From NCBI GenBank assembly GCA_024672315.1, contig GCA_024672315.1_4714.1: a stretch of 64,000 nt of DNA, one strand, 5' to 3'. The notes beneath the pieces were generated by a model. It made no database searches and was not told the DNA's origin. It worked only from the letters and a program-made list of their open reading frames with translations. Origin of the DNA: a phage. The translations under genes were made by a program, and so were the position numbers. Shown piece after piece: positions 2,224-54,219 of this stretch. Every line of letters begins with the position of its first letter. The stretch's first letter is position 1.

Positions 2224-3012
2224 TTAGAACGCTAAGCCATCAAAGGCTACGGACGGATCATCGTCGTCATTTGCGCTTGGCGCATCCCAACGGGTATCAG
2301 GGGCCGCTGAAGCCGAACTTGATGCGTTAGAGTTACCGTTGTACTGGCCGTTACCAGCATTACGGTTACCGCCGCCGTTGTTGTTACGGTTATAGCTATT
2401 GTTGCCACCATTACTTACGCTACGGCTTTCACCGTCGAAGTTGGTTGCGAGGATGCTTGGCAACACCGCGCGATGAATACGTACAAATTCCAACGCACAA
2501 AGCGGAGAAACAACCCCGATCTGTAAAGGTTGCCCAGACTCATCAACCAGAGCGTGGAAGCGCGGTGGCTTGAATACGAATTGGATGTTCGGTTTTTGGT
2601 ACGCTGTTACAGCGATATATACCGAACCATCATCGTTCTTACCAACCCATGTTGTACTTTCGGTAATCTGTTTCTTCTTACCTGGGTTATTGCGATCGTC
2701 GATAACCTTTTCGTTCTTCATCGCAAAGCGTTGGCCTGGTTTACCCTTAGCAACCTGCTCGAGGATCGCAAGCAGGTTATAGAACGCGTATGAGCTCATG
2801 CGTGCCCAAATGCTTTCAGCGCGACCCTGCTGGTCTTTACGACCGGTGTAAACCGTGATACGCGGTTGATTCTTAGCAACGCTAATTTTCAATGAGGGGA
2901 TTGAATTACCGCCCTCAACCTTTTCGTCCGCCCACAGTTTCCAGTTGTTGTCGTCATACGCTGTAGGAATAATGTTTCCTTGTGGTTTACTGCCCGAATT
3001 CCAATTGCTCAT
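2224..3012 (-). CDS. hypothetical protein, possible ssDNA-binding-like protein
   Basis: 262 aa; long N/G-rich low-complexity linker followed by an acidic C-terminal tail (DDDDPSVAFDGLAF), an organisation reminiscent of SSB proteins; GAGG RBS. Functional call is weak. Confidence 0.35.
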   Translation of the reverse strand: MSNWNSGSKPQGNIIPTAYDDNNWKLWADEKVEGGNSIPSLKISVAKNQPRITVYTGRKDQQGRAESIWARMSSYAFYNLLAILEQVAKGKPGQRFAMKNEKVIDDRNNPGKKKQITESTTWVGKNDDGSVYIAVTAYQKPNIQFVFKPPRFHALVDESGQPLQIGVVSPLCALEFVRIHRAVLPSILATNFDGESRSVSNGGNNSYNRNNNGGGNRNAGNGQYNGNSNASSSASAAPDTRWDAPSANDDDDPSVAFDGLAF

Positions 3013-3085
3013 TTTCAGCCTCGTTACGTAGTGTGAATCAATTTCTGGTTCAGATGATAGTCAATATTAGTTAAAAATTACAGCC

Positions 3086-3883
3086 TCAGCGGAACATGTC
3101 CAACAGAAAACGTTTTGCGAAGGGGTCACGTAACTGGTTGACGCCAAAGCGTGTACGGTCTTCCGTTGTTAATGGATTCCACTGACTCTGTTTCGCAAGA
3201 TCTAACAGCATCCTTTTTATTTTCACCGGCCCGCTGTTGAACTGTACGGCTTGGTCACCGAACGTTCCCAACGTCATCTTTGTAAATGGAAGGTTCGCAA
3301 CCTCTGGACGATCCCCACCAGTAAGTTTGGTTGACCACTGATGTTTTCGTTTCAAGGTTCCGGTATGGCTTTCTACCAAAATAAGTTCACCAAAACCGGT
3401 TCTTGCCAACAAGTCAGAAACATAGTGCGTGGTGATATACGATGTCTTGGTTATCGCGGGTAATTTACAATCCATCGATTCGATATTAGGGAGTCGATCT
3501 ACAGACGCCATCAACCCACGATAAAGTGTAGCGAGTCCTTTTTGTTTTTCGGTGTGTGGCTCCTTATGTGTAGCGTGCGGATAAACACGCTTTATTGACG
3601 CATAGGTTGGCGCATATATCCGCAAGCGAATATGGGGAACGAGTTCATTCACCAGCTGCCTTAGCTGTAGTAACTCGTTTTGAAAATCCCCTGTTATCAT
3701 CGATAATGGTAATTTATGTTGTTCAACGTCTTCAAAGCTTTCAACGAAATTGCGTGCTAAAGTACGCAGGTTGAACAACCAATCCATCGGTGTTTCTGGC
3801 TGTTGCTGTACGGCTGATAATGTTGCAGACGTACCTACCGATAAAGGATAATCACCTAACGTGCGGGCGTACATATTGCTCAT
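3086..3883 (-). CDS. hypothetical protein
   Basis: ORF-track 3086..3919; start moved to ATG at 3883 (MSNMYART...) preceded by AAGGAG. Confidence 0.55.
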   Translation of the reverse strand: MSNMYARTLGDYPLSVGTSATLSAVQQQPETPMDWLFNLRTLARNFVESFEDVEQHKLPLSMITGDFQNELLQLRQLVNELVPHIRLRIYAPTYASIKRVYPHATHKEPHTEKQKGLATLYRGLMASVDRLPNIESMDCKLPAITKTSYITTHYVSDLLARTGFGELILVESHTGTLKRKHQWSTKLTGGDRPEVANLPFTKMTLGTFGDQAVQFNSGPVKIKRMLLDLAKQSQWNPLTTEDRTRFGVNQLRDPFAKRFLLDMFR

Positions 3884-5045: not shown

Positions 5046-5827
5046 CAGAATTCCTCTAAATTGCTGCTGCTAATAGTCCCCGTCGTAGACGGCATGTTTC
5101 TACTACCCACCGACGCTGTTGTTGAAGAGGTTCTGGCTAGATTCAATCCGTTTAATAAACCACGCTCTTTTACCGTACGACGTGAACCATCACGAACGTC
5201 GTAAAGGGGTACGTTATAATGGTCAAAAATCCGAAGCCATTGCACGTAATCAGCAACAACATGGTCTTTGCTTTCATTCGGGGCAAAGCGATCAAGCTGA
5301 TGGTCGACGTAAGCTTTAGCGCTTTCAGGATTGAAGTTATACTGTCGGCGTGCTTTGTCCACCATCGCGAGGAAACATGTATTGGGGTCACGATTGATAT
5401 ATGAACGCGTCCGGATAAAGATAGCCGGTACCGTAAACAGAACCTTGTTGTTATTCCCGTCAGCAACGATGTTAACCGCACGATGTGGTTGGCCTGCTAT
5501 CTTGCACCAATCGTGAACAATGGTGCTATTACTCAACATCTCCGCGTATTCAGGATCCTGCGAAAACATTCCTGCGAACGGGTACAAGAAATGTTTAACG
5601 AACAGCGATTCGGGCAGGATGTTGGGACGCGTCATCTCCTGTAAACCTTTTCGTAGAAGCTCGCTGTTGTCTACCAGCTCCTGCCACATATCCGGTCGTG
5701 TTTTCGGGATGGACGGGTCCTGAGCACGACGAATGCGTTCTTCTTCATTTACAACCACTACCCCAGCCGGATACCCCAATAAATCCGTTCCTTCGCTAAC
5801 GTTGCTGTTAGTTTGGCGCGCCTTCAT
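5045..5827 (-). CDS. hypothetical protein
   Basis: 260-aa ORF, translationally coupled to the downstream nuclease gene. Confidence 0.5.
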   Translation of the reverse strand: MKARQTNSNVSEGTDLLGYPAGVVVVNEEERIRRAQDPSIPKTRPDMWQELVDNSELLRKGLQEMTRPNILPESLFVKHFLYPFAGMFSQDPEYAEMLSNSTIVHDWCKIAGQPHRAVNIVADGNNNKVLFTVPAIFIRTRSYINRDPNTCFLAMVDKARRQYNFNPESAKAYVDHQLDRFAPNESKDHVVADYVQWLRIFDHYNVPLYDVRDGSRRTVKERGLLNGLNLARTSSTTASVGSRNMPSTTGTISSSNLEEF

Positions 5828-6215
5828 TTACTTCCTCCTGCCACTTGATAAAATTACCACGCTCGGATCGCAGAACACCACCCAGATCGTACGATATACC
5901 TTTCTCTGTGACAATCCCTCCAATCTGGAGATCGACACGTTCCGTCGTCGGATCGATATACTTGACACGGACTTTCAATTCCACGCGATCGTAATAACGC
6001 ATTAAATAATCATACAACATCCGGTATGTCGCATCTTCCAATTTGGGTGCGCTATACTGCGATGTTGCAATGAGGTACGGTAGTGAAACGATGGAACCTT
6101 GATAGCAATACGACTGGGAATAATTCGATATTGCGAAATTGGTCATTAACCCATCCAACTTTTTACCCGATGCGGTTAAAAAGCTCGACAGTCCCGGTAA
6201 CGGATTCGATGCCAT
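5808..6215 (-). CDS. hypothetical protein
   Basis: 135-aa ORF in a same-strand gene array. Confidence 0.45.
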   Translation of the reverse strand: MASNPLPGLSSFLTASGKKLDGLMTNFAISNYSQSYCYQGSIVSLPYLIATSQYSAPKLEDATYRMLYDYLMRYYDRVELKVRVKYIDPTTERVDLQIGGIVTEKGISYDLGGVLRSERGNFIKWQEEVNEGAPN

Positions 6216-6228
6216 GAGGAACTCCTCT

Positions 6229-6702
6229 TTAAGCGTAATTCATTCCAACCAATCTATCGTAGTTAGGCATATGCCCTAACTCCAGTTCGACAGGCATGGA
6301 TACATTGGTGCGTGGTGCGTAAAATGTTCGCGTATGCATATCGATATACCCACAGTCCAAATAAACAATATCGGACAACTCCGACGGATGTTTAGGCGCG
6401 GGAATCTTTAATCGATTATAACACTCAAGCTGCCACCAAGCATGAAAAAAGTTATTGTAGGCGTACGATTTACTGTTGGCAACTTTAAGTCCGTAGATCA
6501 CCCATAACGCCGCCATGAAGTTGGTTGCGTTAATTCGCATCGGTTGTTCATTATTGAGCATGTACGTGTAGGTAAACAACGGTGTGTTACCGTCACCAAA
6601 ACGTCCGACTAAGGTATTGTTCGTGTGTTCGACCTCAAAGGAAAAATGCTGGCTGCTATTGCCATCAAAATGGATCATTCCGTTCTCCTCAAGCTTTTTC
6701 AT
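6229..6702 (-). CDS. hypothetical protein
   Basis: ORF-track 6229..6768 begins at a GTG inside a GC-rich hairpin; internal ATG at 6702 (MKKLEENG...) is preferred. Start uncertain. Confidence 0.45.
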   Translation of the reverse strand: MKKLEENGMIHFDGNSSQHFSFEVEHTNNTLVGRFGDGNTPLFTYTYMLNNEQPMRINATNFMAALWVIYGLKVANSKSYAYNNFFHAWWQLECYNRLKIPAPKHPSELSDIVYLDCGYIDMHTRTFYAPRTNVSMPVELELGHMPNYDRLVGMNYA

Positions 6703-6797
6703 TTCATAGAGTGGTGGAAATTCGTAGAAAGTTACAAAAATAAAAAAGAATGGGTAGCCCCTCCCCACCCGAAGGTAGGGAGAGACCGCAAATATAT

Positions 6798-7262
6798 TTA
6801 AACCAAAGCTGCGATAACGTCGTTAACATTGCGGCCTCGCAACTCTGCCGCTAAACGAATAACTTCATCCAGGGAACGGTTTGTACGAATCTTGGCCACT
6901 TTCCAATTTTCAGGATACTGTTCGAAGTTAAGCAACCAAGTCATTACCTTTGCTTGTTCCATACCGTTGAGTTTAATTGTCGTGCGCGGATTGGCTTTGA
7001 ACCACTTCTTGCTCAGCTGCGCCATACGGCGAACAGGGTAAGCGTAAGCGCGAGTCCAGTCTTTGGACAGATTGTCGAGTAATTCACAGTAGCTGTTGTC
7101 GTAGTCTTTGTTGATACGACGTAATAACCAGTTGGCGGTCATCTGATAAAGTTTATCATCTTCACGTAACCGCATACCTGCTACTGCTAAATAAATGATA
7201 AGACCTGCGCCCAGGATGAGAGACAGGATGAACAGAATTTGGGTTTCTTGTGCTAAAGTCAT
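6798..7262 (-). CDS. hypothetical membrane protein
   Basis: N-terminal hydrophobic helix (ILFILSLILGAGLIIYLAVAG); start set at ATG 7262 with GAGGA upstream; early-promoter-like motif upstream. Confidence 0.55.
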   Translation of the reverse strand: MTLAQETQILFILSLILGAGLIIYLAVAGMRLREDDKLYQMTANWLLRRINKDYDNSYCELLDNLSKDWTRAYAYPVRRMAQLSKKWFKANPRTTIKLNGMEQAKVMTWLLNFEQYPENWKVAKIRTNRSLDEVIRLAAELRGRNVNDVIAALV

Positions 7263-8915: not shown

Positions 8916-9153
8916 TTAGCAATGGTTGTTAGTTGCTTCTATTTCGTCAAGATACGGTTCTACGTCATCGCCCTCCACGAATTCGTTGAACCAACAGTCA
9001 ATGGTAGAAATAACCGGTGACTGGTGTTCACATTTCTTAGATACCTTAAAAGGTACGTTATTATCCATCATACCGAGTTCGGGTCGAAAACGCCCGAAAT
9101 GTTTCGCAGTCCAAATGTCTGGGACGATATGGTTGTTCATAGCGTCTCCGTCG
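8916..9153 (-). CDS. RNA polymerase beta'-like subunit (nvRNAP-type), 3' exon encoding the catalytic loop
   Basis: In-frame minus-strand translation from 9153 reads DGDAMNNHIVPDIWTAKHFGRFRPELGMMDNNVPF..., matching the bacterial beta' segment DFDGDQMAVHVP...LMMSTNNILSP. The ORF track shows only a 74-aa fragment (8916..9140) because an in-frame stop lies upstream in the intron. Confidence 0.65.
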
Positions 9154-9530
9154 CTGTTTATCGACTATATCTTCATCCTCATTGCGAGGAGTCTCCCGTT
9201 TGGGTCTGTGTTTAACAGAGCCTACTCTACTCGACGTCGCGTCTTTCGATAGTCTGTGAGCACACATCTTAACAAACATTCGTGGATTCCTAAACAGGTG
9301 AATGTTCTTGTTGAGATGCTTCGCTGCGGATTATTCCCGTCCTACCTCTTTTACCGTACCCAGTTCATTACGCTGGCCCTCATCTATGTCACCACGATGA
9401 GTTGGTGTGTAGTCCGATTACAGAAACTTCCCGTCAATTAGAGAGTTTTAACTACGTTCCTGTTACCAGAAACCAGATCCCGACGGTATCAATAAATCAA
9501 CGTAAGTTATTGATTTAATTGAAAAAACTG
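9154..9530 (-). ncRNA. group I self-splicing intron (second intron in the nvRNAP-type beta' gene)
   Basis: Minus-strand core elements in canonical 5'-to-3' order: P-like AATTGACGGGAAG (plus 9427-9439), Q AATCCGCAGCG (9322-9332), R GCTCACAGACTATCG (9247-9261), S AAGATATAGTCGA (9161-9173). Exon nucleotide before the intron is U; intron ends in G at 9154. Only about 9 nt follow S, so no P9 is evident and the exact 3' boundary is uncertain. Confidence 0.6.
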
Positions 9531-9549
9531 AAATCTGCATTATCTAAAT
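9531..9549 (-). CDS. 19-nt micro-exon of the beta'-like gene encoding (Y)LDNADF
   Basis: Minus-strand AT TTA GAT AAT GCA GAT TT; joined to one upstream exon nucleotide (T) and to the downstream exon (C GAC GGA GAC) it gives YLDNADFDGD, restoring the universal NADFDGD Mg-binding motif. Flanked by intron 3' G (9550) and followed by the next intron. Confidence 0.5.
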
Positions 9550-9932
9550 CTTCAGTATGGTTCGCTACGCCATACCCGCACATACGTGCAACTTACGTCT
9601 TTCACGTAAGAAGAGACTATATCTTTCACCCTCAGCATTATCTGGTCGGGGCTCCCATTTCGGCGGTCATCTGACCGGTGGTTTCCCACGCCGCTTGGCC
9701 CTAACGCCCGTAAGCGATAGTCGTTGAGCGCATCTCCGTTCTGGAGACTTCGCTGCGGATTCCCCAATCCTTGCCGCTTTTACCATACCCGAATGATTAG
9801 TTCAGCCCCACGCGCTGTTCCCAGGCGTGGTTGGTGGACAAGGCTCTAAGTAGGTTCCCGCATTAGAGAGTTCCTCGTAACAACATTTCTGCGTTACTGG
9901 GCCTAACGACCCTTTCAAGATCATCACGCTTA
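9550..9932 (-). ncRNA. group I self-splicing intron (first intron in the nvRNAP-type beta' gene)
   Basis: Minus-strand P TAATGCGGGAA (plus 9855-9865), Q AATCCGCAGCG (9751-9761), R GCTCAACGACTATC (9716-9729), S AAGATATAGTC (9615-9625), P9-like hairpin CTTACG-tgaaaga-CGTAAG (9592-9610). The 5' boundary at 9933 is a best guess (exon ends in U, frame gives Tyr when joined to the micro-exon). Confidence 0.65.
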
Positions 9933-11151
9933 ACCCGATGGTGTTATCCTGCGGATCGCGTTTAACCTTGGTGATTTCAAGACATTGGTTACTGCTTCGG
10001 TCAAGTGATGGGTTTCGAACAAAGCCACACACAATCCCATCGAACGGTGTATCAGCAATAAGCTCATCATGCAGCTCGCTCATCATCGGATGATAATTAC
10101 GGACATGTTCCGCAACGAACGCACGTGCTGCTCTTGGTGAATAACCACGATGGAATAACTTGGATTGGATATGTTCTTTATTGGTTAAAGTAAATGGTGC
10201 GTATGGGAAATGCAGATGATAATAACGATGGTTCGCTGTTATCGAACTGATTACGGTACGCGTGGTAAATGGATGTAATGTACCTAATATGTTTTTACGT
10301 GTGATACCTTTCTTCTTACCGATGAACTCATCGAAAATCGCCGCATGGTATTGCAGCAGCTTCAATTGCACTTTCGCCATCCAGTTTTCTTTCTTTCTGG
10401 CGCTCAAAGGTGTTGTTGGATGATAGATACTGTTCAACGTACCGATAGCATCGATCGCACCTTCCATTTTGCTATCCGCATAACGACCGGTTGGCGTATT
10501 CTCGATAACGAACATCATGGCCGCAGGAAAGCTGATATACTGACTGAAGAACTTATCACGATGAATACGGATGAATTCTCGTAGCGTGTCAACTTTCTCC
10601 GTGTTCTTCGGTCCACGTAACGTCGGTCCTTTATACAAGATCTCCATGATGCGATCGAAGTTCTGTATAAAACTATTTACGCCACGTCGTATCCCGAATA
10701 CATCGAATTGCTGCTCCAGATAGTTCTTGAGTTCGATGGGTCGTTTTACATTTGGACGGTAACTGGCATCAATGAGCCACGTCATCGTTTCAAAGCTTTT
10801 GATATTCAACTCGCTTGCCAGCACGAGATGGACCAACGGGTTAATGAACGCATCGATTCCTTCAGGAACGCGCGCCCACACCGTCGAACGAATCTCCTGT
10901 TCTGCTGGGTAGGTTACAACCGTTTTACAGTTTGGACACACCGTGCCGAGCAGCTCACCACGATTGTAGAAACCACAACCACATTGTGGCGTGATATCCA
11001 ACGTATCGCTGGAGTAAACACGGGTGATAAAACTGTTTAATTTCTTCTTCTCTTCGACGACTTTTGTATCGTAATCGTTCAACAAAATCGGCGTAAAAGG
11101 AAGTTCTGCGAGCTGTCTATCGAAACTCACGATATCGAGCATGATGGCCAT
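9933..11151 (-). CDS. RNA polymerase beta'-like subunit (nvRNAP-type, N-terminal part), 5' exon
   Basis: Zn-finger-like CGCG...CPNC near the N-terminus; GKKKGITRKNILGTLHPFTTRTVISS resembles beta' [39 protein letters not shown] resembles NRAPTLHRLGIQAFEP (switch 2). ORF-track runs on to 9802, but the last ~43 codons are judged intron read-through. AGGAGA RBS. Lies immediately downstream of the chimallin candidate, as gp54-gp55 do in phiKZ. Confidence 0.7.
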
Positions 11152-33798: not shown

Positions 33799-36389
33799 TC
33801 ACCTTTGATTGTGTAAAACTTCGTGAAGTCCACGCGATCTTTCAAGAACTCACGACTGACGCGTTCTAAGAACCGCAGTTGTTTAACCGTAACTTCAAGC
33901 GGCGTCCAACTGTCGTGTGGATGAATAGAGACCATCCGCCAATCGTAATTACGTAACGCAGGATCGTAGTCATAGAACCATTTATACGGCTCCATGAAAT
34001 CCATCAGTTTAACGTCCTGCATGTCAGGATCGGGATCGATAACACCATTGATAAGATCGTACGTTACCGCCATCAACGTTGGGCTGATAAGCTGGTATTT
34101 GTTTTCAATCGTTACCGGCGTATCGTACTTCACACGAGGGAAATACAAGGACATATAGTCTTCAACGCGTTTATCGGTTTCAAGACTTTTGTCGCGTAGA
34201 TAATACGTGTCTGTGTTCACGAGACCGCGGATAGGGGCAATAACGTGGTAAATCGCATAAGGTACCCCATCGTTGACTTTGATGTCGGCAGGGTATTGCG
34301 TGTCCTCTGCGGTAACCACTTCGCTACGATCGTAAATACGTCCACCAACCACAATACGAACAACGTGATCGTCACGAACATTAAACACATCGTCGTAAGA
34401 AAGCTGATTATGCATCGTCCAACCGGTATCGTAAACGGTTTCACCGGTTAAGTCCGTACGCGGAAAACCGGTGCATCTCACGGTAACCGTGTGTGTGTTC
34501 CCTTCACTGAAATAACGTTTCGCGTTGATCACGATCGTTGGCCATTTTACGATATAGTCGATATCGCGTACCAAGCTGTAGCTTTTGGTTGCTCGCTCGT
34601 CACCTAACCACACTTCGATTTGACCAGGTTCGAAAGGCAGCGGATATTCAACATCAATACCTGTCGTAACATCCAACCATACGGTGTGGTTACGATGTTG
34701 TACTGTGGTCTTATACGCTAAGAAGTAGGTGTCGAACAATACTAAACCGGTTTGCTTTCTTCCATCCAACGACCATTTTATCACCCCGTTCTCTTCCGTT
34801 ACCACAGAAGCATCGTCGGTAACATCCTTCCATGTGTTCGCAACAGGTTGTCCGTTACGAAGGTTTACGCTATAGCAACGGTAGCTTGCCCATTCACGGA
34901 TTGGGACGTCGGCAACACCCATTACGTAATCAAGCGTTCTCCCACCAACACCCGATCGACCCTCAACATAGGACGTGGTTTCATATTGCGGATAAAAATG
35001 TCGACCTGCCGGATGTTGCGTGATACCCAATAATAGACCGTCACTGTCGTACTCGAAAAACGTCGCATTTGCACGCAAACCCCACGGTACTTCAGCAGTA
35101 GGTGTACCCATATCGTCAGTAACGCGTTGTGGACTATCTGCAACCAGTTTCGCCATCGCGTTATACCCGTAAGCGGAGGTCACCATGTCGATCGTGATAT
35201 TGCTTTCCTTATTACGCATGATGCGTGTATAATCACTGGCTTCAAGCGTACGTGCAAAGAACTCAGGTATATTAGCGTTCTGTTCTAACATCGCACCGAC
35301 GATGACGTCGTCTGGAAGTTTATACAACTCGTGGATGCGGTTATGTTCAAAGGTTAACTGCGTTTTCAAACCGCTATCACGGACAACCACTTCCAGGGTT
35401 AAATCACGAAGCGATTCTGCGCCATCAATCCGTTCAACGAAGTAGCTGACATAATCAACAGGAATCCCGTAATCACGATGCGTGAGCATGCGGATACTAT
35501 TTTCCTGGTTGGTGTGGTAATAACGTCCTTTTCCGTTAGGGCCTTTCACGTAGATATCAACGTCATCACGATACCGGATCTTGGTATCCACTTCATCTTT
35601 CGGTGGATGAATAAGATACTTCACTTTTTTGTCCAGATCGCTATTGTACGTTTTAAGATCTTCTACACGGAAGCTGTACCGATGAACAACCGTACCGTCA
35701 TAGACGACCTGAATGCTATCACCAATCTTAAAACTTGACGGCGGAATGTCTTCAACCGCTTCACCGTTGATGCTGCAGTGCGTCCAGCCGATACCGGTTT
35801 CCTGGATCTTTTTACGCCAGGCGTATAGCTGGCGCTGCCACTGCAGAACCTGTGTCGAGCTGGTTACGATCCCCCCAAGGACATGCACTTCACGCCCCGT
35901 CGGTTTCGTGTATGATGGATAGCCTTCCGCGAAGTCAGCGTTGAGATAAGTGCGCCAGTAATAATCACCAACGCCAAGGTCAGCGATATTCGGTTGGTCT
36001 AGCACACAGACCAGCATCGTTTCGTTTTCCAGATTACCCGTCCACGTTAATGTCAACGGGAATTCTTTACCGTCCTCGGTATAGATATTGTAATACGATC
36101 CCTTCACTTCACAGAACTTGCTGAGTTCTCGCCACCACAACCGCCCAGCCCCGACATTAAAATCCTCTCCCATATGTCGTCCAATAACAAACACATGGAA
36201 CGTATTCGTATCGTCAGGAAGATTGAATGTACGATGCCAAGCCGTAAAGTTTTTTACTGCGCCGGTCTTTCCGGTAATACGACGCATCTTGATACGATGC
36301 TGGTTGTCCATTAATGGACGACAGTTCACATTCAGCGCAGCATGATTTATCAAGTATTGCGCTGTAGGATTAGAAGCGTTCAACACCAC
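33795..36389 (-). CDS. hypothetical protein, probable virion structural protein
   Basis: 864-aa ORF in the terminase-to-sheath interval. Confidence 0.5.
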   Translation of the reverse strand: MVLNASNPTAQYLINHAALNVNCRPLMDNQHRIKMRRITGKTGAVKNFTAWHRTFNLPDDTNTFHVFVIGRHMGEDFNVGAGRLWWRELSKFCEVKGSYYNIYTEDGKEFPLTLTWTGNLENETMLVCVLDQPNIADLGVGDYYWRTYLNADFAEGYPSYTKPTGREVHVLGGIVTSSTQVLQWQRQLYAWRKKIQETGIGWTHCSINGEAVEDIPPSSFKIGDSIQVVYDGTVVHRYSFRVEDLKTYNSDLDKKVKYLIHPPKDEVDTKIRYRDDVDIYVKGPNGKGRYYHTNQENSIRMLTHRDYGIPVDYVSYFVERIDGAESLRDLTLEVVVRDSGLKTQLTFEHNRIHELYKLPDDVIVGAMLEQNANIPEFFARTLEASDYTRIMRNKESNITIDMVTSAYGYNAMAKLVADSPQRVTDDMGTPTAEVPWGLRANATFFEYDSDGLLLGITQHPAGRHFYPQYETTSYVEGRSGVGGRTLDYVMGVADVPIREWASYRCYSVNLRNGQPVANTWKDVTDDASVVTEENGVIKWSLDGRKQTGLVLFDTYFLAYKTTVQHRNHTVWLDVTTGIDVEYPLPFEPGQIEVWLGDERATKSYSLVRDIDYIVKWPTIVINAKRYFSEGNTHTVTVRCTGFPRTDLTGETVYDTGWTMHNQLSYDDVFNVRDDHVVRIVVGGRIYDRSEVVTAEDTQYPADIKVNDGVPYAIYHVIAPIRGLVNTDTYYLRDKSLETDKRVEDYMSLYFPRVKYDTPVTIENKYQLISPTLMAVTYDLINGVIDPDPDMQDVKLMDFMEPYKWFYDYDPALRNYDWRMVSIHPHDSWTPLEVTVKQLRFLERVSREFLKDRVDFTKFYTIKGE

Positions 36390-47458: not shown

Positions 47459-50400
47459 TTATTTAGCGTCGTTAAAGTAAATATCAACAGCTCGTTCCGT
47501 TGCGTAGAGGAGACCAAGATTCACAGTCCCAACCACTTCCGGTGAACCGATGATACGGTTAGCGATACTGGTGCCACTGAAGATAGCATCAAGGGTGTGC
47601 CCGTCTTCGGTTTTGTTCACACCATGACCCACGGAAGAGACAACGGATTTCGCTTGTGCTGCGAAGGTACCTTTATCACCCATCCCCGCACCAAGGTCGT
47701 AACGCATGAAAATACGGATAGCGATCTGGTTCTCGCCTAACGGATTACCGTCTATTCTCACGTTACTGTTATTGATACGCCCTGTTGTTGCCTCGCTGAG
47801 TTTCAGTTCCTTGACGCGTTTAGCTCGCGCTTTATCCGCTTCACCGACGAGCGCCGCCATGGTTTCGCTCATATCCTCAATCTGAGCGCGGTACAGTACA
47901 TCGATCTGTACAACTTCACCATGAACATCAGCACGTGGGTTATACTGACTCATACGACGTAATGCTTCAACGGCTTCCTGACTCTCATCACTCAGATCAG
48001 TTGCGATCGGTTCTTCCAGTGTTGCAAGAATCGTTCGCGGTTCAACGTGGTCGCCGATTTTCACAAGACCACGAATGTTGAGATGGGCGTCAACGATAAG
48101 CGTACGGCTCTTAATCGATGGTGTTACGAGACGATCAGCAAGATTGTCGAAGATATACGAACTGTCCTCGTGAGTCTCTGGAATATCCAGAATACCGACA
48201 AGAGACAGAACACCTGCGCGCCAAACAACCTGACCCGGGTTCCACCAATCGCGTTTAAAATAAAGACGATGGAAAACCACCACATCCTGATCCTTAACGC
48301 GATCCCCGACTTTATAATCGGTAATGAGATCATGGGGATAATACTTACCTGGTCCTTTCCCGATTATCGTACCGAGCTGGAAAACCTCTTCCCCTAACTC
48401 TGGATCGTCGTATTGTATCGTAAGCGCGGTTTTGGTGACCTTCTTCACAACACCATCGCCTTGGGCAGCTGCTGCGAAGAGCTTACCAACACGATGCGCG
48501 ATGACAGTCTCACCACCTGTACGCCACGGTTGTACATCGTAACCTTCAGCAGCAATCATGCGGTTGTGTTGGATCCCGACAAAGACCAGACGTTTTCCAT
48601 CGTCGCGGTCTACAGCCGGAACAGCTAACGCTGACGTACTCATTACCGATGAAATGCCGTCTGTCTTTTCATCGAATGGTCGTGTTTCACCATATACCGA
48701 CACGATATTAGCATTAGGTGCGAGGTAAGCAGAAATACCTACGTCCCCGCTATCTTTCGTACCCTCTGACACAATACCAACATCGGACTTGTCGTATTCA
48801 CGATCGCGTGCGCGTCGAAGCGATGTCTTTGAACGACCTCCGATACCGGTCATCGTCGCTTCTTCACCCTGCTTGATATCCAACATCGGGTTGGTTTCAT
48901 CAATCACGATGGAAGCACTGTCGTCGAGAATCTGGTTCCAGACACTTACCGGACTGATTGATATTTTCTGGCGATTTCCTTGACTGCTGTTCTCATTCTG
49001 ACGAATAGCACCAACCAGGTCCTTATACACCAATTCAGCGAACTTATCGTACGTTTTAAAACGTTGGTAGTTCACATCGTTCGTGTTAGGAGCCCAATCA
49101 TCCAGAAGCAGTTCAACAGCACGCAGTAACAACATGGCGAAATCGGTAGGTTCTCCCATGTTCTGTAGCAACGTACGGCTTACCGGATCAACGAAAAGAC
49201 GCTCCATGAGTTCAAGTTCGCGTAAATGACGAACCTTAAGTCCAGCACCATCGACAACGTTAAAATAGATATCTCGATTGTCAAAAGCGCCGCGAGCGTA
49301 ACCGATGTAGTTACGGTATTCGTTAAACCCACCCAGCAACAACGTCGTCATGCGATCGTCTTTACTGAAGATCAAACTTTCGTCATCAAAGCTCACCGCG
49401 AATTCATCGGGTGCTAGACCCATACGAGAACCGCGAGGTACCGTACGATAGTTCGCTTTAAGATGTTCTAATAACGGGGTAAGTCCACCCAGATAACTTA
49501 GAACAACACCGACCGGAATACGTACACCCATGAATTCAAGATCGGCGGCTTCGATCGGCATCTTAGCCGCATTGATACCGAAGAAATCAGGGAACGTCCC
49601 TACAGGTGTTGGTGTTTGTCCTGACTGACAGATATAGAGCTGATTGCGTTTATCGATTGCTAAGAATTCACCCAGCGTGTTACGCGCAAACGTCAGGAGC
49701 CCTTCGGCTAACTGTTCGTTGAACCGATCTTCCCCGATGAACTCCGGCAATGTCTTTGTATCGAGACGTATATCCCAATCAGCAAATTGGATTTGGGTAT
49801 AGTTGCGTGCAAGCACAGCGAAGTAATACGGAACTTTGACGGCCGGATCAAAGACGTTACCGCGTTTCAACGTGGTTAAGGGTGAGGATTTATCGTAATA
49901 CATCGCCGTAAGTTGACGTGTTAGCCAACGACCGGCGTTATTAACGACGCGCTCTGAACGTTTAACAAACACCTTACCGTAGGCGGTACTCAACGCAACT
50001 TCAGATGACGATACCTTTCTAATAGGTTTATCAACACGTTGTTTACGCATCCGGTATTTGATGCCGTTAACGACATAAATGCCATCCTTACGAACCTTCG
50101 GCAACATCACCGGGAACGTGGTCGGGACACCGCCTACGGGAGCCAGTTTAATCGTGATGACTTGATAATCCCCCATCACGTCAACAACATCTTCGACTTT
50201 ATATCCCGTAACAGGGTAACCCGCCTGCTGTACCGCAACAACAGCGGCTGCGATGTCCTTTTGCATTACGTGTTCAACGTAATGTTTATCCCACACCGCA
50301 AGCGTCGATTTACACAGGCTCTTATCGACGATAACATCCGCTTCCGGCATAACCTTTGCAGGAGCTAATTTCGCGGCTTTTGGTTTAACTTCAACATACT

Positions 50401-51805
50401 CGGCAAGTGTTAATCCAGAACCGTCGGGTGCTTCGATTTCATGGATGGCGTCAGCATTACGCATCGCTGCTTTATATTGGACACCGCTTAACTGACCTGC
50501 ATCGGCCAGATCGCTCGCGCGCACCAACACCGCATCCGATAACGACTGAATATACTCACCGTGTGTTTTTGGTAACGTTGTCGCGTCAAAGACATCAACC
50601 TTTTCTTCTTCGGTATCGTCGGTAACGACTTCGAAGAGATCGTCGGTAATGTCCTGATCTTCATCAGGTTGGAAATCCGGTTGTACTTCTACCCCAGGTA
50701 CTTCACGGACATCTTCGAACGAGCGTTCTACAATGGCGTTCCACGCATCAGCGTCATCGTCTTCATCCGACCCGCCGACCAACTCAGCTTCTAACTCATC
50801 GGGATCAAGAACGGTAGCCAGATCCTCACCGTTAGGAAGCACGACGTCGCGATCATCGTACTCCGCATCCGGGCTGTCCGCAAGAATATCTCGCTCCTGA
50901 CGAAGAACCTGTTCCTCTTCTTGTTTCTGTTCTTCTTCATTCGCGCTCTGCGACCACAGACGTGTTACCGCCATCATCCAACGACGTTGGAAGGTTTCAA
51001 GTGTCGTTTTATCGAGTTCTTCCCCTTCCTTTACAAGTCCGGTACGCCATTCTTCCAGCAGGCCGAGATTCAGCGTAAAGAAGTACACGCCGTCTGTGAA
51101 TACAACGTTAAGCTTGTCCAGCGTGGCTCTGTCTAACGAAGCCATCGTGCTGTTCTCACGATCGGTTCCCAGCCAGCGGAAGAAGTCAAAGAACGACAGC
51201 TCCTCCGGTGTGGCGAAATTCATGAGGTTGTTACGGGTCGGTGCCTGTTGCGTGGTACGCATCAACGAAATCTTCGGCAATGTTGACGGTATACGGAACA
51301 ACAAAAAGTGTTGGCGATCGCTTTGCTGTGCGATTTCGTTGGCTTTCGACCAAATTGTTTTACGTACATTGAACCATTCATCATACCAACGGGTGAGCGT
51401 TGGACGATAAATGTACATGTGGTTAAGATGCGCGTAGTTAGCAACGATCTGAGCGTTGATGTTTTTCTCCACCGTGCTTAGATCGGTAACCAAACGAAAA
51501 CGACGATGTGATGCACGATAATCCAATTTCGCTCGTGGGAGTTGGAATCGTTGATCGCGTCGAGGTGCACCCTGTTTGGTTGCGAGATCATCAGCAAACG
51601 AAATCCATAGTTGAGCATTTTCTTTACTCAGCATGTATTCGTTTTCTGGAGGACCTATCAATGAAGGATCCGTTGCGATGTAATGATAGACAGCATAACG
51701 CGGCAGCTGCAATAGCTGCACTAAACGTAATCTTGGTGATAGTAACTCTTGGTAGCGTCTGACACCAAACTGTCGGTAGTAATCAAGGTATTTAAGTTTT
51801 GCCAT
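47459..51805 (-). CDS. multisubunit RNA polymerase beta-like subunit (vRNAP-type, N-terminal part of beta)
   Basis: 1448 aa; TGIGGRSK...VGIVSEGTKDSGDVGISAYLAPNANI resembles the beta fork-loop region; GDKGTFAAQAKSVVSS...TEDGHTLDAIFSGTSIANRIIG resembles the GDKxxxRHGxKG...DENGxPVDIVLNP region; the protein ends about 60 aa after this, with no GEME-type C-terminal region, consistent with a split beta. GGAG RBS. Large acidic insertion in the N-terminal half. Confidence 0.75.
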   Translation of the reverse strand: MAKLKYLDYYRQFGVRRYQELLSPRLRLVQLLQLPRYAVYHYIATDPSLIGPPENEYMLSKENAQLWISFADDLATKQGAPRRDQRFQLPRAKLDYRASHRRFRLVTDLSTVEKNINAQIVANYAHLNHMYIYRPTLTRWYDEWFNVRKTIWSKANEIAQQSDRQHFLLFRIPSTLPKISLMRTTQQAPTRNNLMNFATPEELSFFDFFRWLGTDRENSTMASLDRATLDKLNVVFTDGVYFFTLNLGLLEEWRTGLVKEGEELDKTTLETFQRRWMMAVTRLWSQSANEEEQKQEEEQVLRQERDILADSPDAEYDDRDVVLPNGEDLATVLDPDELEAELVGGSDEDDDADAWNAIVERSFEDVREVPGVEVQPDFQPDEDQDITDDLFEVVTDDTEEEKVDVFDATTLPKTHGEYIQSLSDAVLVRASDLADAGQLSGVQYKAAMRNADAIHEIEAPDGSGLTLAEYVEVKPKAAKLAPAKVMPEADVIVDKSLCKSTLAVWDKHYVEHVMQKDIAAAVVAVQQAGYPVTGYKVEDVVDVMGDYQVITIKLAPVGGVPTTFPVMLPKVRKDGIYVVNGIKYRMRKQRVDKPIRKVSSSEVALSTAYGKVFVKRSERVVNNAGRWLTRQLTAMYYDKSSPLTTLKRGNVFDPAVKVPYYFAVLARNYTQIQFADWDIRLDTKTLPEFIGEDRFNEQLAEGLLTFARNTLGEFLAIDKRNQLYICQSGQTPTPVGTFPDFFGINAAKMPIEAADLEFMGVRIPVGVVLSYLGGLTPLLEHLKANYRTVPRGSRMGLAPDEFAVSFDDESLIFSKDDRMTTLLLGGFNEYRNYIGYARGAFDNRDIYFNVVDGAGLKVRHLRELELMERLFVDPVSRTLLQNMGEPTDFAMLLLRAVELLLDDWAPNTNDVNYQRFKTYDKFAELVYKDLVGAIRQNENSSQGNRQKISISPVSVWNQILDDSASIVIDETNPMLDIKQGEEATMTGIGGRSKTSLRRARDREYDKSDVGIVSEGTKDSGDVGISAYLAPNANIVSVYGETRPFDEKTDGISSVMSTSALAVPAVDRDDGKRLVFVGIQHNRMIAAEGYDVQPWRTGGETVIAHRVGKLFAAAAQGDGVVKKVTKTALTIQYDDPELGEEVFQLGTIIGKGPGKYYPHDLITDYKVGDRVKDQDVVVFHRLYFKRDWWNPGQVVWRAGVLSLVGILDIPETHEDSSYIFDNLADRLVTPSIKSRTLIVDAHLNIRGLVKIGDHVEPRTILATLEEPIATDLSDESQEAVEALRRMSQYNPRADVHGEVVQIDVLYRAQIEDMSETMAALVGEADKARAKRVKELKLSEATTGRINNSNVRIDGNPLGENQIAIRIFMRYDLGAGMGDKGTFAAQAKSVVSSVGHGVNKTEDGHTLDAIFSGTSIANRIIGSPEVVGTVNLGLLYATERAVDIYFNDAK

Positions 51806-51808
51806 GGG

Positions 51809-51988
51809 TTAGGCTCCACGAGGTCCCGTTAAGTTGCGTAATAGGAACGCAACCGTATCGTAACCAATATCGATGTTGAATTTATTTTTACCACTTACCC
51901 AGAAAGCACGCTTCTTGTGCGAGTTGGTAATTTCGTCAATGGCTTCCATGGAATAAAGAACGTTAACCGAGACCGTATCGCCGTCGAA
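51809..51988 (-). CDS. RNA polymerase beta'-like subunit (vRNAP-type), 3' exon encoding the catalytic loop
   Basis: Minus-strand in-frame translation from 51988: FDGDTVSVNVLYSMEAIDEITNSHKK...GPRGA-stop, matching beta' [20 protein letters not shown]; stop lies 3 nt before the beta-like gene's ATG. Not in the ORF track (no start codon). Confidence 0.65.
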   Translation of the reverse strand, partial: FDGDTVSVNVLYSMEAIDEITNSHKKRAFWVSGKNKFNIDIGYDTVAFLLRNLTGPRGA

Positions 51989-52507
51989 CCTTGTCTTCGC
52001 CTCAGGTCGCTACGCTGAGACCGCCTGCGTGGATACGTACATCACAGGCTGCTTGCACTTTCATGCAAGAGGAGACTATATCAAACCGTCAGCTTCACCT
52101 GCTACGGTAACCTACACTTCGAAGACGCTTGTCCTCTACAGGGTGGTAAATCCCTTAGTCGTTGAACCTGCGTTGTTTCACATTCTTGTTTGCAAGAATG
52201 CCGTATTGCTACGCAACAACCAGGCTGCTGATTGCCCATTATCACGCACCTTAGCACCGCTTACGCGGCTTTTCTTTCAGCCTAAGCCTCCGTGGGAGGT
52301 AGTGCATCTCAACTGTTGTTTCCGCCTTTCGGCACCTCATGGGTTGTTGAGCTTTAGGGGTTCCCAGCAATTCGTAGGTTTTTCAAGCACTCCCTTTCGG
52401 GAATACCGGACCAATTCAGTTAGTAAACAACATTATTACCATCCCTCATTCTTAAGGGTTAATTTTTTAAAATGATAAAATTAATGTGTTTTTGGGCTAA
52501 CTCGAAG
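51989..52507 (-). ncRNA. group I self-splicing intron in the vRNAP-type beta' gene
   Basis: Minus-strand P CGAATTGCTGGGAA (plus 52361-52374), Q AATCAGCAGC (52225-52234), R GGTTCAACGACTAA (52155-52168), S GATATAGTC (within 52072-52084), P9-like hairpin CTTGCA-tgaaag-TGCAAG (52052-52069). Exon nucleotide before the intron is U (52508); intron ends in G (51989). Splicing gives ...YLAGLGGD|FDGDTV.... Confidence 0.7.
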
Positions 52508-53974
52508 ATCACCGCCTAAACCGGCGAGGTATGGCGCAGGAACAATAGTCGTTTCTACGAACGAAGCATTAGGTAACCAGTCGGGGTATTCCCATGCGAT
52601 AAATCGTTCATCCGTTATTGGTTCCCAGTTACTATCCAGTTCGGTTTTCGGTTTTGCAGCGACGGTTGTACGCGCGTAACAGGTTAACGGGATAACGGAT
52701 TGCATACCCGATACCGGATAACGTGTTACCATCGCAGCCAGGTTATTCCAGTACTTATATCCGGCGATATAGATAAGCTCGGTGTAAGTAATGGGGTGAA
52801 CATCCGCACCAGGTTTATTCAACATCTCTGGGGGTAATTCACTCATACCACGGAATAACCGAAACGAATCGTTGTTCACATAGACGAGGCAAAGATAACG
52901 TCCATTAACCATGATAGGCTCGTTACGCACACCAGGATCGCTTAAGGTGTTCAATAAACGTTCTATTCCGTCCCATGTTGTAAAGTCATCGATGGTATCT
53001 GGGTCTAACGTGACACGTTCACGTTCCATCGTTTCGATATCGATAAGTTCAACTTCTGTAACATCACGGACAAATATTTCCTGCAAAATCCCCGTACGTA
53101 GCGCATGTTGCGTTACAGGGAGAGCAGCTTTACTCATCTGGTATAACCCTAACTGAACCGCGGTACAGGAAGGCTGGTTAGGCGACCCTAATACCTCCGT
53201 TGTGGGGTTAATTGCCGAAATAACGTTACGGGTTGAGTTCCAAACGCGACGTGAGCCGAACTTACCTTGGAAGATCCCTTTCTTACCCTGGAACATATCC
53301 AACAGTAAAGCGTAGATATCGTTAAATGTTCTCTGTAAGCTCCAACGTTGACCGTCGTAAACGGGATCAGAATAATCTTTTAATCCATCAGGGACGGTGT
53401 TAGAAATTGCAAGGAAACGACGATACAACTCCGTGATTTCTTGCTCGCTTTCATACCCACCTTCTTTTACTTCTATTTCACGTAAGCCTGCAGGCAATAC
53501 CAGTAAGTGACGGGTCATCGCTTTGAACATGTTCTCTTCGACAACTTTAATTCGTAGCTCTCGTTGAGCTGAACCCGTTGAAACGAACTTGATATCAGCG
53601 ACGTGTTGTGCAAAGAACCCGTATCCTGTTTGTCCTGTTAATGCATCAGACGCAACGAAGTCGCGTTGTTCAGGATCCCAACGAGCATACGCCTTTCCCG
53701 ACATGATATCACCATAGAGGTGTTTTAGTCGAATGAGGCGGTCGTAAATGACGGGATGCAGGATTTCAACTTTGCATTCAATCACCGCAAATCGACGGTC
53801 TCGATCTTCACTACCTGCGCTACCAAAGATGGTGTAAGAATAGAAACCATCATCGTGGAAATTACCGGTGCTTGGGTCACGAATGCTCATGCTCGTGATC
53901 TTGGGGAGAAAACGTAACTGCTGTTTATCGAGGTGTAAAATGCTAATGTTAAACGGCTCTCTGACTTTAGCCAT
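52508..53974 (-). CDS. RNA polymerase beta'-like subunit (vRNAP-type, N-terminal part), 5' exon
   Basis: DGFYSYTIFG...RRFAVIECKVEILHPVIY resembles beta' DGLFCARIFG...RRERMGHIELASPTAHIWF but lacks the Zn-finger cysteines; GKKGIFQGKFGSRRVWNSTRNVIS resembles [23 protein letters not shown]. Start set at ATG 53974 with AGAGGAG (ORF-track 54016). ORF-track end 52481 includes 27 nt of intron read-through. Confidence 0.7.
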
Positions 53975-54219
53975 GGAGACACTCCTCTTTACCACCACCG
54001 GCTGCGGCGGTATCATCTGAACACACGAGAGACGTAATGGGTGATGGCGTCACCCATCGCTTCCTTGCCTGATGCCAGGAAGTTATTAGGTTACGTACCG
54101 GCTTGATAAAATCAAGCAGGCGATGTGTGAAGTTACGCTTCAACATTATCAATGCCGAAGGTAAGCTTCGTGCATCACGTTCCAACGTAACATGGGAACG
54201 TATCGAACTGGAGGTATAC

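Follow-up and report, generated by a model that had tools for sequence, protein, structure and literature searches.

Background

Phage group I introns are known classically from the td, nrdB and nrdD genes of T4 and from the DNA polymerase genes of SPO1 and Bastille (I-HmuI/I-BasI). Introns are also said to be present in AR9, in the 2016 genome paper on that phage by Lavysh. The subject of this report is a group I intron of 519 nucleotides (nt), without an open reading frame (ORF), in the gene for the N-terminal beta' subunit of a virion RNA polymerase (vRNAP) encoded on a 64,000-nt stretch of phage DNA (contig GCA_024672315.1_4714.1; the whole stretch is called the window below). Coordinates are those of the 64-kb window, in which the intron, both exons and the neighbouring beta gene are all on the minus strand. 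The source region shares ~95-97% identity with vB_EcoM_Goslar, an Escherichia phage that belongs to the nucleus-forming jumbo phages of the Chimalliviridae.

The occurrence of group I introns at the catalytic codons of essential phage genes, with an optional HNH endonuclease, has been reviewed (PMC12908238). In PhiPA3, the gp210 intron in the vRNAP beta gene gp211/209 was characterised in 2024 (Birkholz et al., PMC11620839). That system and the present one are alike in that a vRNAP subunit gene of a chimallivirus is interrupted immediately beside conserved aspartates of the catalytic region, within the same gene order. They differ in that the PhiPA3 intron lies in the beta gene, after DD near residue 1072 of phiKZ gp178 (where the beta gene of the window is uninterrupted), and in that gp210 is an HNH nicking homing endonuclease, whereas the beta' intron of the window has no endonuclease. 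Introns and a homing nuclease are marked in the vRNAP genes of SPN3US, phiKZ and 201phi2-1 in the accessible part of Thomas et al. 2016 (PMC5105663, Fig. 7), and AR9 has introns according to the accessible part of PMC5312081; the accessible text of the Thomas 2016 and AR9 literature places no intron inside the vRNAP beta' DFDGD codons.

An orthologous insertion is present in Goslar itself (NC_048170), at GAU|UUC and between exons that encode the same protein. In the GenBank record it carries the non-coding RNA (ncRNA) label 'Intron_gpI' (HOV27_gs002), which covers only part of the ribozyme, while gp205 is truncated, exon 2 is unannotated and gp206 is listed as hypothetical. No mention of the Goslar intron was found in the Goslar genome paper, the 2025 review (PMC12908238) or a 2026 virion-structure preprint. 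The intron of the window is real but of an ordinary phage kind, a chimallivirus vRNAP intron and the Goslar ncRNA label being already known. It resembles the classic phage introns in its position at catalytic codons, the optional HNH or GIY-YIG endonuclease in a peripheral loop and the existence of relatives with and without the intron, and perhaps also in having an IA-type ribozyme. Unlike them, it resides in a gene for a multisubunit RNA polymerase (RNAP) beta' rather than for nucleotide metabolism or a DNA polymerase, and in a phage that keeps transcription apart from translation in a phage nucleus.

Results and discussion

Identification of a group I intron

An earlier note on the window, made from the sequence without database searches, had proposed a group I intron with P, Q, R and S elements in order and a P9-like hairpin in the ORF-free spacer between a beta'-like and a beta-like gene. 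The features at this locus are as follows.

52508..54016 (-): exon 1 of the vRNAP N-terminal beta' gene (99.6% identity to Goslar gp205; phrog_2986 match)
51989..52507 (-): group I intron, 519 nt, no ORF (Rfam and minimum free energy (MFE) fold; missing from allele L007)
51809..51988 (-): exon 2, encoding FDGD (catalytic Asp 2 and 3) and 55 more residues, then TAA (51811-51809)
47459..51805 (-): downstream vRNAP beta gene, 1448 amino acids (aa), uninterrupted ortholog of PhiPA3 gp211/209 and phiKZ gp178, corresponding to Goslar gp207

The identification of 52507..51989 (-) as a group I intron (RF00028) was supported by the covariance-model search that the earlier note had proposed: Rfam RF00028 Intron_gpI matched 52436..52052 (-) over the full model (1-253/253) with 63.6 bits (E 8.7e-14), above the gathering score of 50 bits. 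An unconstrained MFE fold of the 519 nt yielded P2, P3, P4, a branched P5, P6, P7.1, P7.2, P8, P9, P9.1 and P9.2, with a z-score of -4.1 relative to dinucleotide shuffles, none of which (0/100) was as stable. The core helices P3-P9 were fully complementary, including the P3/P7 pseudoknot, and the four conserved elements stood in the proposed order (P 52373-52361, Q 52233-52223, R 52167-52156 and S 52082-52074, all (-)). Apart from the shortness of the P/Q/R/S motifs, nothing favours a chance resemblance to group I motifs in an ordinary intergenic spacer; this explanation is already refuted by the E-value of the covariance match and the presence/absence polymorphism with exact boundaries described below, the stability of the fold also speaks against it, and its probability is negligible.

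The splice junction and the ligated reading frame

The joining of U52508 to the nucleotide following G51989, which the earlier note had predicted to give GGD-FDGD with three catalytic aspartates, agreed with three independent lines of comparison that together fix the junction. Firstly, homology between the window and Goslar breaks at 52508/52507 and is collinear again from 52412. Secondly, an intron-less allele (L007, IMGVR_UViG_3300011560_000001, a 237.5-kb Goslar-like viral contig) reads GGTGGGGAC|TTTGATGGT across the site and encodes ...GLGGDFDGDTVSV...GPRGA*, identical to the predicted ligation product. Its longer read (…CCGGACTTGGTGGGGAC|TTTGATGGTGATACGG…, encoding …PAPYLAGLGGDFDGDTVSVNVLYSMEAIDEI…LTGPRGA*) corresponds residue for residue to the U52508-to-U51988 product, the uninterrupted protein stretch being ...YLAGLGGDFDGDTVSV...GPRGA*; the ligated-exon site of the window is GGCGGTGAT|TTCGACGGC. 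An Rfam scan of the L007 locus found no intron. Thirdly, homologs are uninterrupted at this point: when the joined protein was used as a tblastn query, a single contiguous match over the junction was obtained in 285 of 310 phage records, the alignment of PhiPA3 gp212 crosses it (LAPLTADFDGDTVSFNAVYSKEAIEE with LAGLGGDFDGDTVSVNVLYSMEAIDE) and runs on to the C-terminus ...LRNLTG, and in the structure of the AR9 non-virion RNA polymerase (nvRNAP) beta' subunit (7S00_d) LSGDYDGD is aligned to LGGDFDGD. An exact exon-pattern scan of viral contigs had reached Goslar only, while L007 and a further relative, L009, were reached by a protein-based scan.

These comparisons support U52508|G51989 as the exact predicted junction, giving ...GGD|FDGD.... 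The predicted joined product, …LAGLGGD-FDGDTVSV…GPRGA, has all three catalytic aspartates. The intron sits between the D and F codons (GAU|UUC), so that catalytic Asp 1 lies in exon 1 and Asp 2 and 3 lie in exon 2.

The interrupted gene

The ORF layout given in the earlier note was recovered in full. A 511-aa ORF (52481..54016 (-)) extends 27 nt (52507..52481) beyond the proposed 5' splice site, and a gap of 675 nt (52480..51806) separates its stop from the ATG of the next minus-strand gene, which begins at 51805. Exon 1 ends in GGC GGU GAU (…GGD), the last codon being that of the first catalytic aspartate. Exon 2 (51988..51809) continues in frame, as had been noted, with the translation FDGDTVSVNVLYSMEAIDEI...GPRGA, and its TAA is followed by 3 nt (CCC) and the ATG of the beta gene. 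The exon 1 ORF was 99.6% identical to Goslar gp205 across 489 residues. ATG 53974 has a strong Shine-Dalgarno sequence (AAGAGGAG), is the annotated start in Goslar and is where homolog alignments start. It is probably the true start, rather than ATG 54016 where the ORF opens; the spliced protein from ATG 53974 has 548 aa. Predicted tryptic peptides from exon 2 are AFWVSGK, FNIDIGYDTVAFLLR and NLTGPR, while the read-through tail of the unspliced ORF is LRVSPKTH.

Neither beta' protein of the window, nor the beta protein, had a match in Pfam, and identities were therefore drawn from PHROGs, PDB and tblastn. The spliced protein matched phrog_2986 over its full length (3-543 of 539) and PhiPA3 gp212 (550 aa) with 39% identity over 549 aa; orthologs of the interrupted gene are Goslar gp205, PhiPA3 gp212 and phiKZ gp180. 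The vRNAP beta gene adjoins the gene for this N-terminal beta' subunit, a synteny conserved with PhiPA3 (gp212, then gp211/gp210/gp209). All five subunits of the Goslar vRNAP, including gp205 and gp207, have been found in purified virions by liquid chromatography-tandem mass spectrometry (bioRxiv 10.64898/2026.04.21.720040). Orthology to gp180 and gp212, synteny and the presence of gp205 and gp207 in virions bear out the vRNAP-type identity that had been suggested, and homology supports an assignment to the virion-RNAP N-terminal beta' subunits (phiKZ gp180 / PhiPA3 gp212 family).

The known split site of jumbo-phage beta' lies after the double-psi beta-barrel (DPBB) domain, not within DFDGD (PMC7598289), and the spliced protein has full-length family homology, including the DFDGD loop, and ends at this post-DPBB site. 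This bears on a second explanation, a true split gene, in which the stop at 52481 would be genuine and a separate small protein, perhaps one with its start close to FDGD, would supply the remainder of the loop in trans. Jumbo-phage beta and beta' are naturally split into several polypeptides (PMC7598289), and a 46-aa ATG ORF (51809..51949) is present in the exon-2 frame. However, a split inside DFDGD would not be the known one, the 46-aa ORF starts after FDGD and would leave out both aspartates, the spacer is a high-scoring group I ribozyme, and the two parts are fused in frame without a spacer in L007 and also in ~285 other phages. A true split gene is thus considered extremely unlikely.

Architecture of the intron

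The intron and its flanking splice sites resolve into the following elements, listed from the 5' splice site.

52497..52510 (-): P1 5' strand, exon GAU (52510-52508) with the splice site after U52508, then intron CUUCGAGUUAG (Goslar homology ends at 52507)
52424..52496 (-): L1, an AU-rich imperfect hairpin of 73 nt; site of the homing-endonuclease ORF in Goslar and L018
52409..52423 (-): P1 3' strand and internal guide sequence CUAACUGAAUUGGUC (conserved GUC(C), covarying intron side)
52386..52407 (-): P2 hairpin, GGUAUUCCC-GAAA-GGGAGUGCU (helix model, MFE fold)
52085..52380 (-): catalytic core P3-P8 (Rfam, MFE fold; helices invariant in three alleles)
52380-52374 / 52115-52109 (-): P3, a core helix
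52373-52361 (-): P element, followed by the branched P5 extension
52233-52223 (-): Q element
52224-52167 (-): P6
52167-52156 (-): R element and P7 5' strand, core
52155-52121 (-): P7.1-P7.2, hairpins suggestive of IA type
52108-52085 (-): P8, core
52074..52082 (-): S element GAUAUAGUC, with the P7 3' strand UAGUC (Rfam, S core repeat)
52069-52052 (-): P9 hairpin with a GAAA tetraloop
52049-52023 (-): P9.1
52021-51999 (-): P9.2
51989 (-): omega-G and 3' splice site, preceding UUCGAC; exon 2 of L007 starts at the equivalent of 51988

Some of the peripheral helices as drawn are approximate (overlap of P5b2/P5b3, and P9.1). The P7.1/P7.2 hairpins between P7 and P3' suggest an architecture of subgroup IA. 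The S core GATATAGTC occurs in five copies in the window, compared with an expectation of 0.41, and each of the three copies on the minus strand is the S element of one of three introns supported by the covariance model. The other two, at 1414-1422 (+) and 34551-34559 (+), are antisense to long minus-strand ORFs; at these plus-strand sites the covariance model found no intron even at E<=0.01, and they are probably chance matches. A 148-aa GTG ORF (52029..52475 (+)) runs antisense through the vRNAP intron; it is almost certainly not a real gene but an artefact of a structured complement with few stop codons.

P1 is anchored by the conserved GUC(C) directly 5' of P2, where exon G-A-U pairs with C-U-G and U52508 forms a wobble pair with G52411. 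In the window the helix continues into the intron (CUUC.AGUUAG with CUAACU-GAA). Four versions of P1, unrelated in sequence, were found among the alleles, with intron-side strand and partner reading CUUCGAGUUAG/CUAACUGAA in the window, CAAGGAAAG/CUUUUCUAU in Goslar, CCCUUUUAG/CUAAAGGG in the metagenome contig L018, and AAGUCCUUGAAAAA/UUUUUCAAGGGAAGUU in L009, L015 and L017. Each is complementary to its own partner, and all keep the U-G pair with GUC(C). Cofolding, which covered three of the four versions, gave -10.0, -12.3 and -16.8 kcal/mol for the cognate strands of the window, Goslar and L009, respectively, and -4.9 to -8.0 kcal/mol for swapped strands. A different guide, GUUAGCC (intron positions 7-13, in a small P1 with a 6-nt loop), was dropped because all alleles share GUC(C) 5' of P2 and long compensating P1 stems, Goslar and L009 having no equivalent of GUUAGCC there. 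An 8-bp complement of the exon end in the Goslar ORF (intron position 404) was likewise rejected as a guide and attributed to chance, ~2 such matches being expected per 2 kb.

Alleles with and without the intron

Loci with a readable 5' part of the intron, to which the allele classes are confined, included one intron-less allele (L007), ORF-less intron alleles in the window, L009, L015 and L017, and endonuclease-bearing intron alleles in Goslar and L018. The three alleles sampled in full were ~94-96% identical to each other between the guide sequence and the 3' end. Their core helices were invariant, and variable columns made up 9/222 of the paired and 18/216 of the unpaired positions.

The Goslar intron has 2044 nt and differs from that of the window by an HNH_3/NUMOD1 ORF in the P1 loop, another intron-side P1 sequence and a 49-nt insertion in P8. 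The P1 loop is an uncommon place for a homing endonuclease gene. The ORF, gp206 (491 aa), matched HNH_3 (3e-8), NUMOD1 and HNH PHROGs, and was 29% identical to PhiPA3 gp210 over the HNH nuclease region; the metagenome contig L018 carries an endonuclease ORF of the Goslar type. No ORF with similarity to an endonuclease was found in the window intron, which, having no homing-endonuclease gene, would not be mobile by itself. Taken together, the alleles suggest that the locus is passing through the classic cycle of intron gain, endonuclease loss and intron loss.

In the P1 loop of the window there is a mini-ORF of five codons (52441..52424 (-), AUG UUG UUU ACU AAC UGA), whose start region (…GGUAAUnAAU…AUGUU…) resembles that of the endonuclease ORF in Goslar. 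This mini-ORF may have been left behind by the deletion of a homing-endonuclease gene; blastn detected nothing else of the endonuclease ORF in the window intron. The 49-nt insertion in the P8 loop, made up of two small hairpins, is present in Goslar, L009 and other relatives (L001 6325-6363; L009 5829-5862) and is missing from the window (counterpart at ~52100-52090), and this peripheral element is apparently being gained or lost. Related HNH genes occupy three positions in the two-gene locus of three phages (intergenic or free-standing, in a beta intron, and in a beta' intron). phiKZ gp179, between gp180 and gp178, is described as similar to PhiPA3 gp210 and Goslar gp206 in the annotation of PhiPA3 189500-198500 (L013).

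All intron-bearing alleles have GAU|UUC at the insertion site, and the intron-less L007 has GAC|UUU. When 52517..51980 of the window was compared with L007 5450-5485, 6/6 third-codon positions within 9 nt differed, compared with ~11% elsewhere (binomial P about 2e-6, calculated post hoc). This clustering fits the pairing needs of U at -1 and of P10, co-conversion and/or resistance of the target site, and does not tell these apart. When 50,697 phage genomes were searched with the intron by blastn, Goslar was the sole full-length relative, the other hits being core matches of 40-100 nt to other introns.

Proposed splicing mechanism and evidence for and against function

Splicing would follow the group I pathway. 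The beta' gene would be transcribed with the intron included, presumably together with the beta gene, and exon GAU with intron CUUCGAGUUAG would pair with the guide CUAACUGAAUUGGUC to form P1, placing the U52508-G52411 wobble at the cleavage site. An external guanosine would attack after U52508, and the freed exon would then attack after the terminal G51989, joining the exons. The ligated mRNA would encode the 548-aa subunit with three catalytic aspartates, while unspliced RNA would give a truncated protein with one. Such self-splicing would presumably take place inside the phage nucleus, away from ribosomes.

Several observations weigh against a functional intron with this structure. The exon side of P1 has only 3 bp in the window and Goslar (G-C, A-U and U-G, with U-4 facing C), and 3-4 bp across alleles. 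P10 is weak, with 4 bp in the window (UGAA 52418-52415 with exon-2 UUCG) and 2-3 bp in relatives, and the P5b1, P6a, P8b and P9.1 pairs as drawn are broken in one or two alleles. The assignment to subgroup IA is drawn solely from the P7.1/P7.2 hairpins. Finally, the ligated junction is a prediction from DNA sequence, in this phage as in Goslar, the mass spectrometry data from Goslar virions having been searched against the unjoined gene model.

The short exon side of P1, the weak P10 and the few broken peripheral pairs would also fit a decayed relic that does not splice, or does so only with a phage or host protein cofactor, such that the 511-aa read-through product accumulates; the loss, or original lack, of an endonuclease ORF in the window copy points the same way. 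Against a relic stands the importance of the enzyme: early transcription in this phage family requires the virion RNAP, as described for phiKZ and AR9 (PMC7598289), targeting of the phiKZ vRNAP beta gene gp178 by PhiPA3 gp210 abolishes viable progeny (PMC11620839), and an unspliced subunit loses two of its three catalytic aspartates. Furthermore, the core helices and the P/Q/R/S elements show no variation among the examined alleles, compared with a divergence of ~4-5% in the flanking exons, P1 has been kept by compensatory change in four versions, and the same core is found in Goslar, a viable laboratory phage whose virions contain gp205. A relic is therefore very unlikely, and even jointly the three alternatives (relic, split gene and chance resemblance) are improbable. 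We consider it very probable that the element works as a group I intron and is spliced at exactly the predicted sites.

Introns in the non-virion beta' gene and in other jumbo phages

The nvRNAP beta' gene of the window spans 11151..8916 (-), with an exon 1 ORF at 9802..11151, and is interrupted by intron A (9908..9544 (-), 365 nt; Rfam 30.8 bits, E 5e-4) and intron B (9530..9154 (-), 377 nt; Rfam 47.8 bits, E 5e-9), both under the Rfam gathering threshold and separated by a 13-nt mini-exon (9543..9531, AUAAUGCAGAUUU). The joined exons encode …ILKG-YNADF-DGDAMN…. Goslar is without intron A and reads contiguously GGT TAT AAT GCC GAC TT, confirming the boundaries of this intron. The earlier note had placed the vRNAP intron at the same catalytic-loop position as in this gene. 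The loop is indeed the same, but the interrupted bond is not: intron A lies 11 nt upstream of the vRNAP-equivalent site, within a Tyr codon (U|AU), and intron B lies 2 nt downstream of it, within a Phe codon (UU|C). The likeness that had been seen between the vRNAP intron and intron A was confirmed, in that the S core GATATAGTC is common to both and a 25-nt block covering S and the P9 hairpin is 88% identical and includes two compensatory pairs in P9; beyond this the two introns have just the generic core in common.

The corresponding region was compared in Goslar (L010), L011 and L012 (around 5200-7100 in these loci, equivalent to ~9920-9140 of the window). In Goslar, intron B is present and contains an HNH-like ORF towards its 3' end, and another intron comes after GCU|AUG. 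Introns A and B and the GCU|AUG intron all occur in L012, with two 13-nt mini-exons. In L011 an 18-nt mini-exon (GACTTTGACGGTGATGCC) lies between two different introns, one after AAC GCU| and one after GAU GCC|. Intron types C and D were not called in an Rfam scan of the relatives (E<=0.001); P/Q/R-like elements were recognised in them by eye. In total, five insertion sites fall within ~36 nt of the nvRNAP loop in Goslar-like phages, with up to three introns at once. Judging from these comparisons, the nvRNAP catalytic-loop codons appear to be an intron hot spot with presence/absence polymorphism.

Unannotated, ORF-bearing introns were also seen in the nvRNAP beta' DFDGD codons of Vibrio phage vB_pir03 (L003 2362-3698) and Proteus phage 7 (L004 ~2440-3804), the latter an SPN3US-like phage with the intron just before DFDGD. 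In both, the exons on either side are listed as genes in their own right, labelled 'RNA polymerase' or hypothetical. The vB_pir03 intron (1323 nt, with an HNH ORF) is the closest relative of the vRNAP intron outside the Goslar-like phages, sharing four collinear core blocks at 82-94% and a 3' tail (GAAGAC…G|UUCGAC) as in the window. It apparently lies at the same D|F site (NAD|FDGD), but in the nvRNAP paralog and in a different genus; the last base of its 5' exon is C where U is usual, and its 5' splice site is putative. The vB_pir03 gene is 27% identical to the N-terminal nvRNAP beta' of the window and has no significant match to the vRNAP beta'.

Implications

The nearest relative outside the Goslar-like phages apparently occupies the same D|F site in the nvRNAP gene of a Vibrio phage, the nvRNAP loop of Goslar-like phages is interrupted at five sites and by as many as three introns together, and all six third-codon positions near the vRNAP site differ between the intron-less L007 and the window. 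For these reasons the ~36 nt coding for (Y)NADFDGD(A) could be a shared landing pad, with introns moving between virion and non-virion beta' paralogs and between jumbo-phage genera. The ORF-less copy of the window might then be kept by HNH endonucleases of co-infecting Goslar-like phages, acting in trans to convert intron-less genomes, with an interference advantage like that of gp210. This wider interpretation is tentative, and we regard it as rather doubtful as a whole.

For Goslar, which is used widely in phage-nucleus research, the intron means that the gene model of an essential enzyme is wrong: the annotated gp205 runs out into intron sequence, the annotation misses two of the three catalytic aspartates along with 57 other residues, and the nature of gp206 as the homing endonuclease of an intron has gone unrecognised. 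Structural, proteomic and knock-down studies of the virion RNAP should be based on the spliced protein of 548 aa. The Goslar-like phages provide a complete allelic series at one site (no intron, ORF-less intron, and intron with HNH endonuclease) and thereby an E. coli system for testing intron-mediated interference competition of the kind demonstrated with PhiPA3 and phiKZ. Considered along with the nvRNAP beta' gene and its multiple interruptions, the vRNAP intron marks the codons of the polymerase active site as an intron hot spot. It also prompts one to ask at what place and time splicing happens in a phage whose transcription and translation are kept apart.

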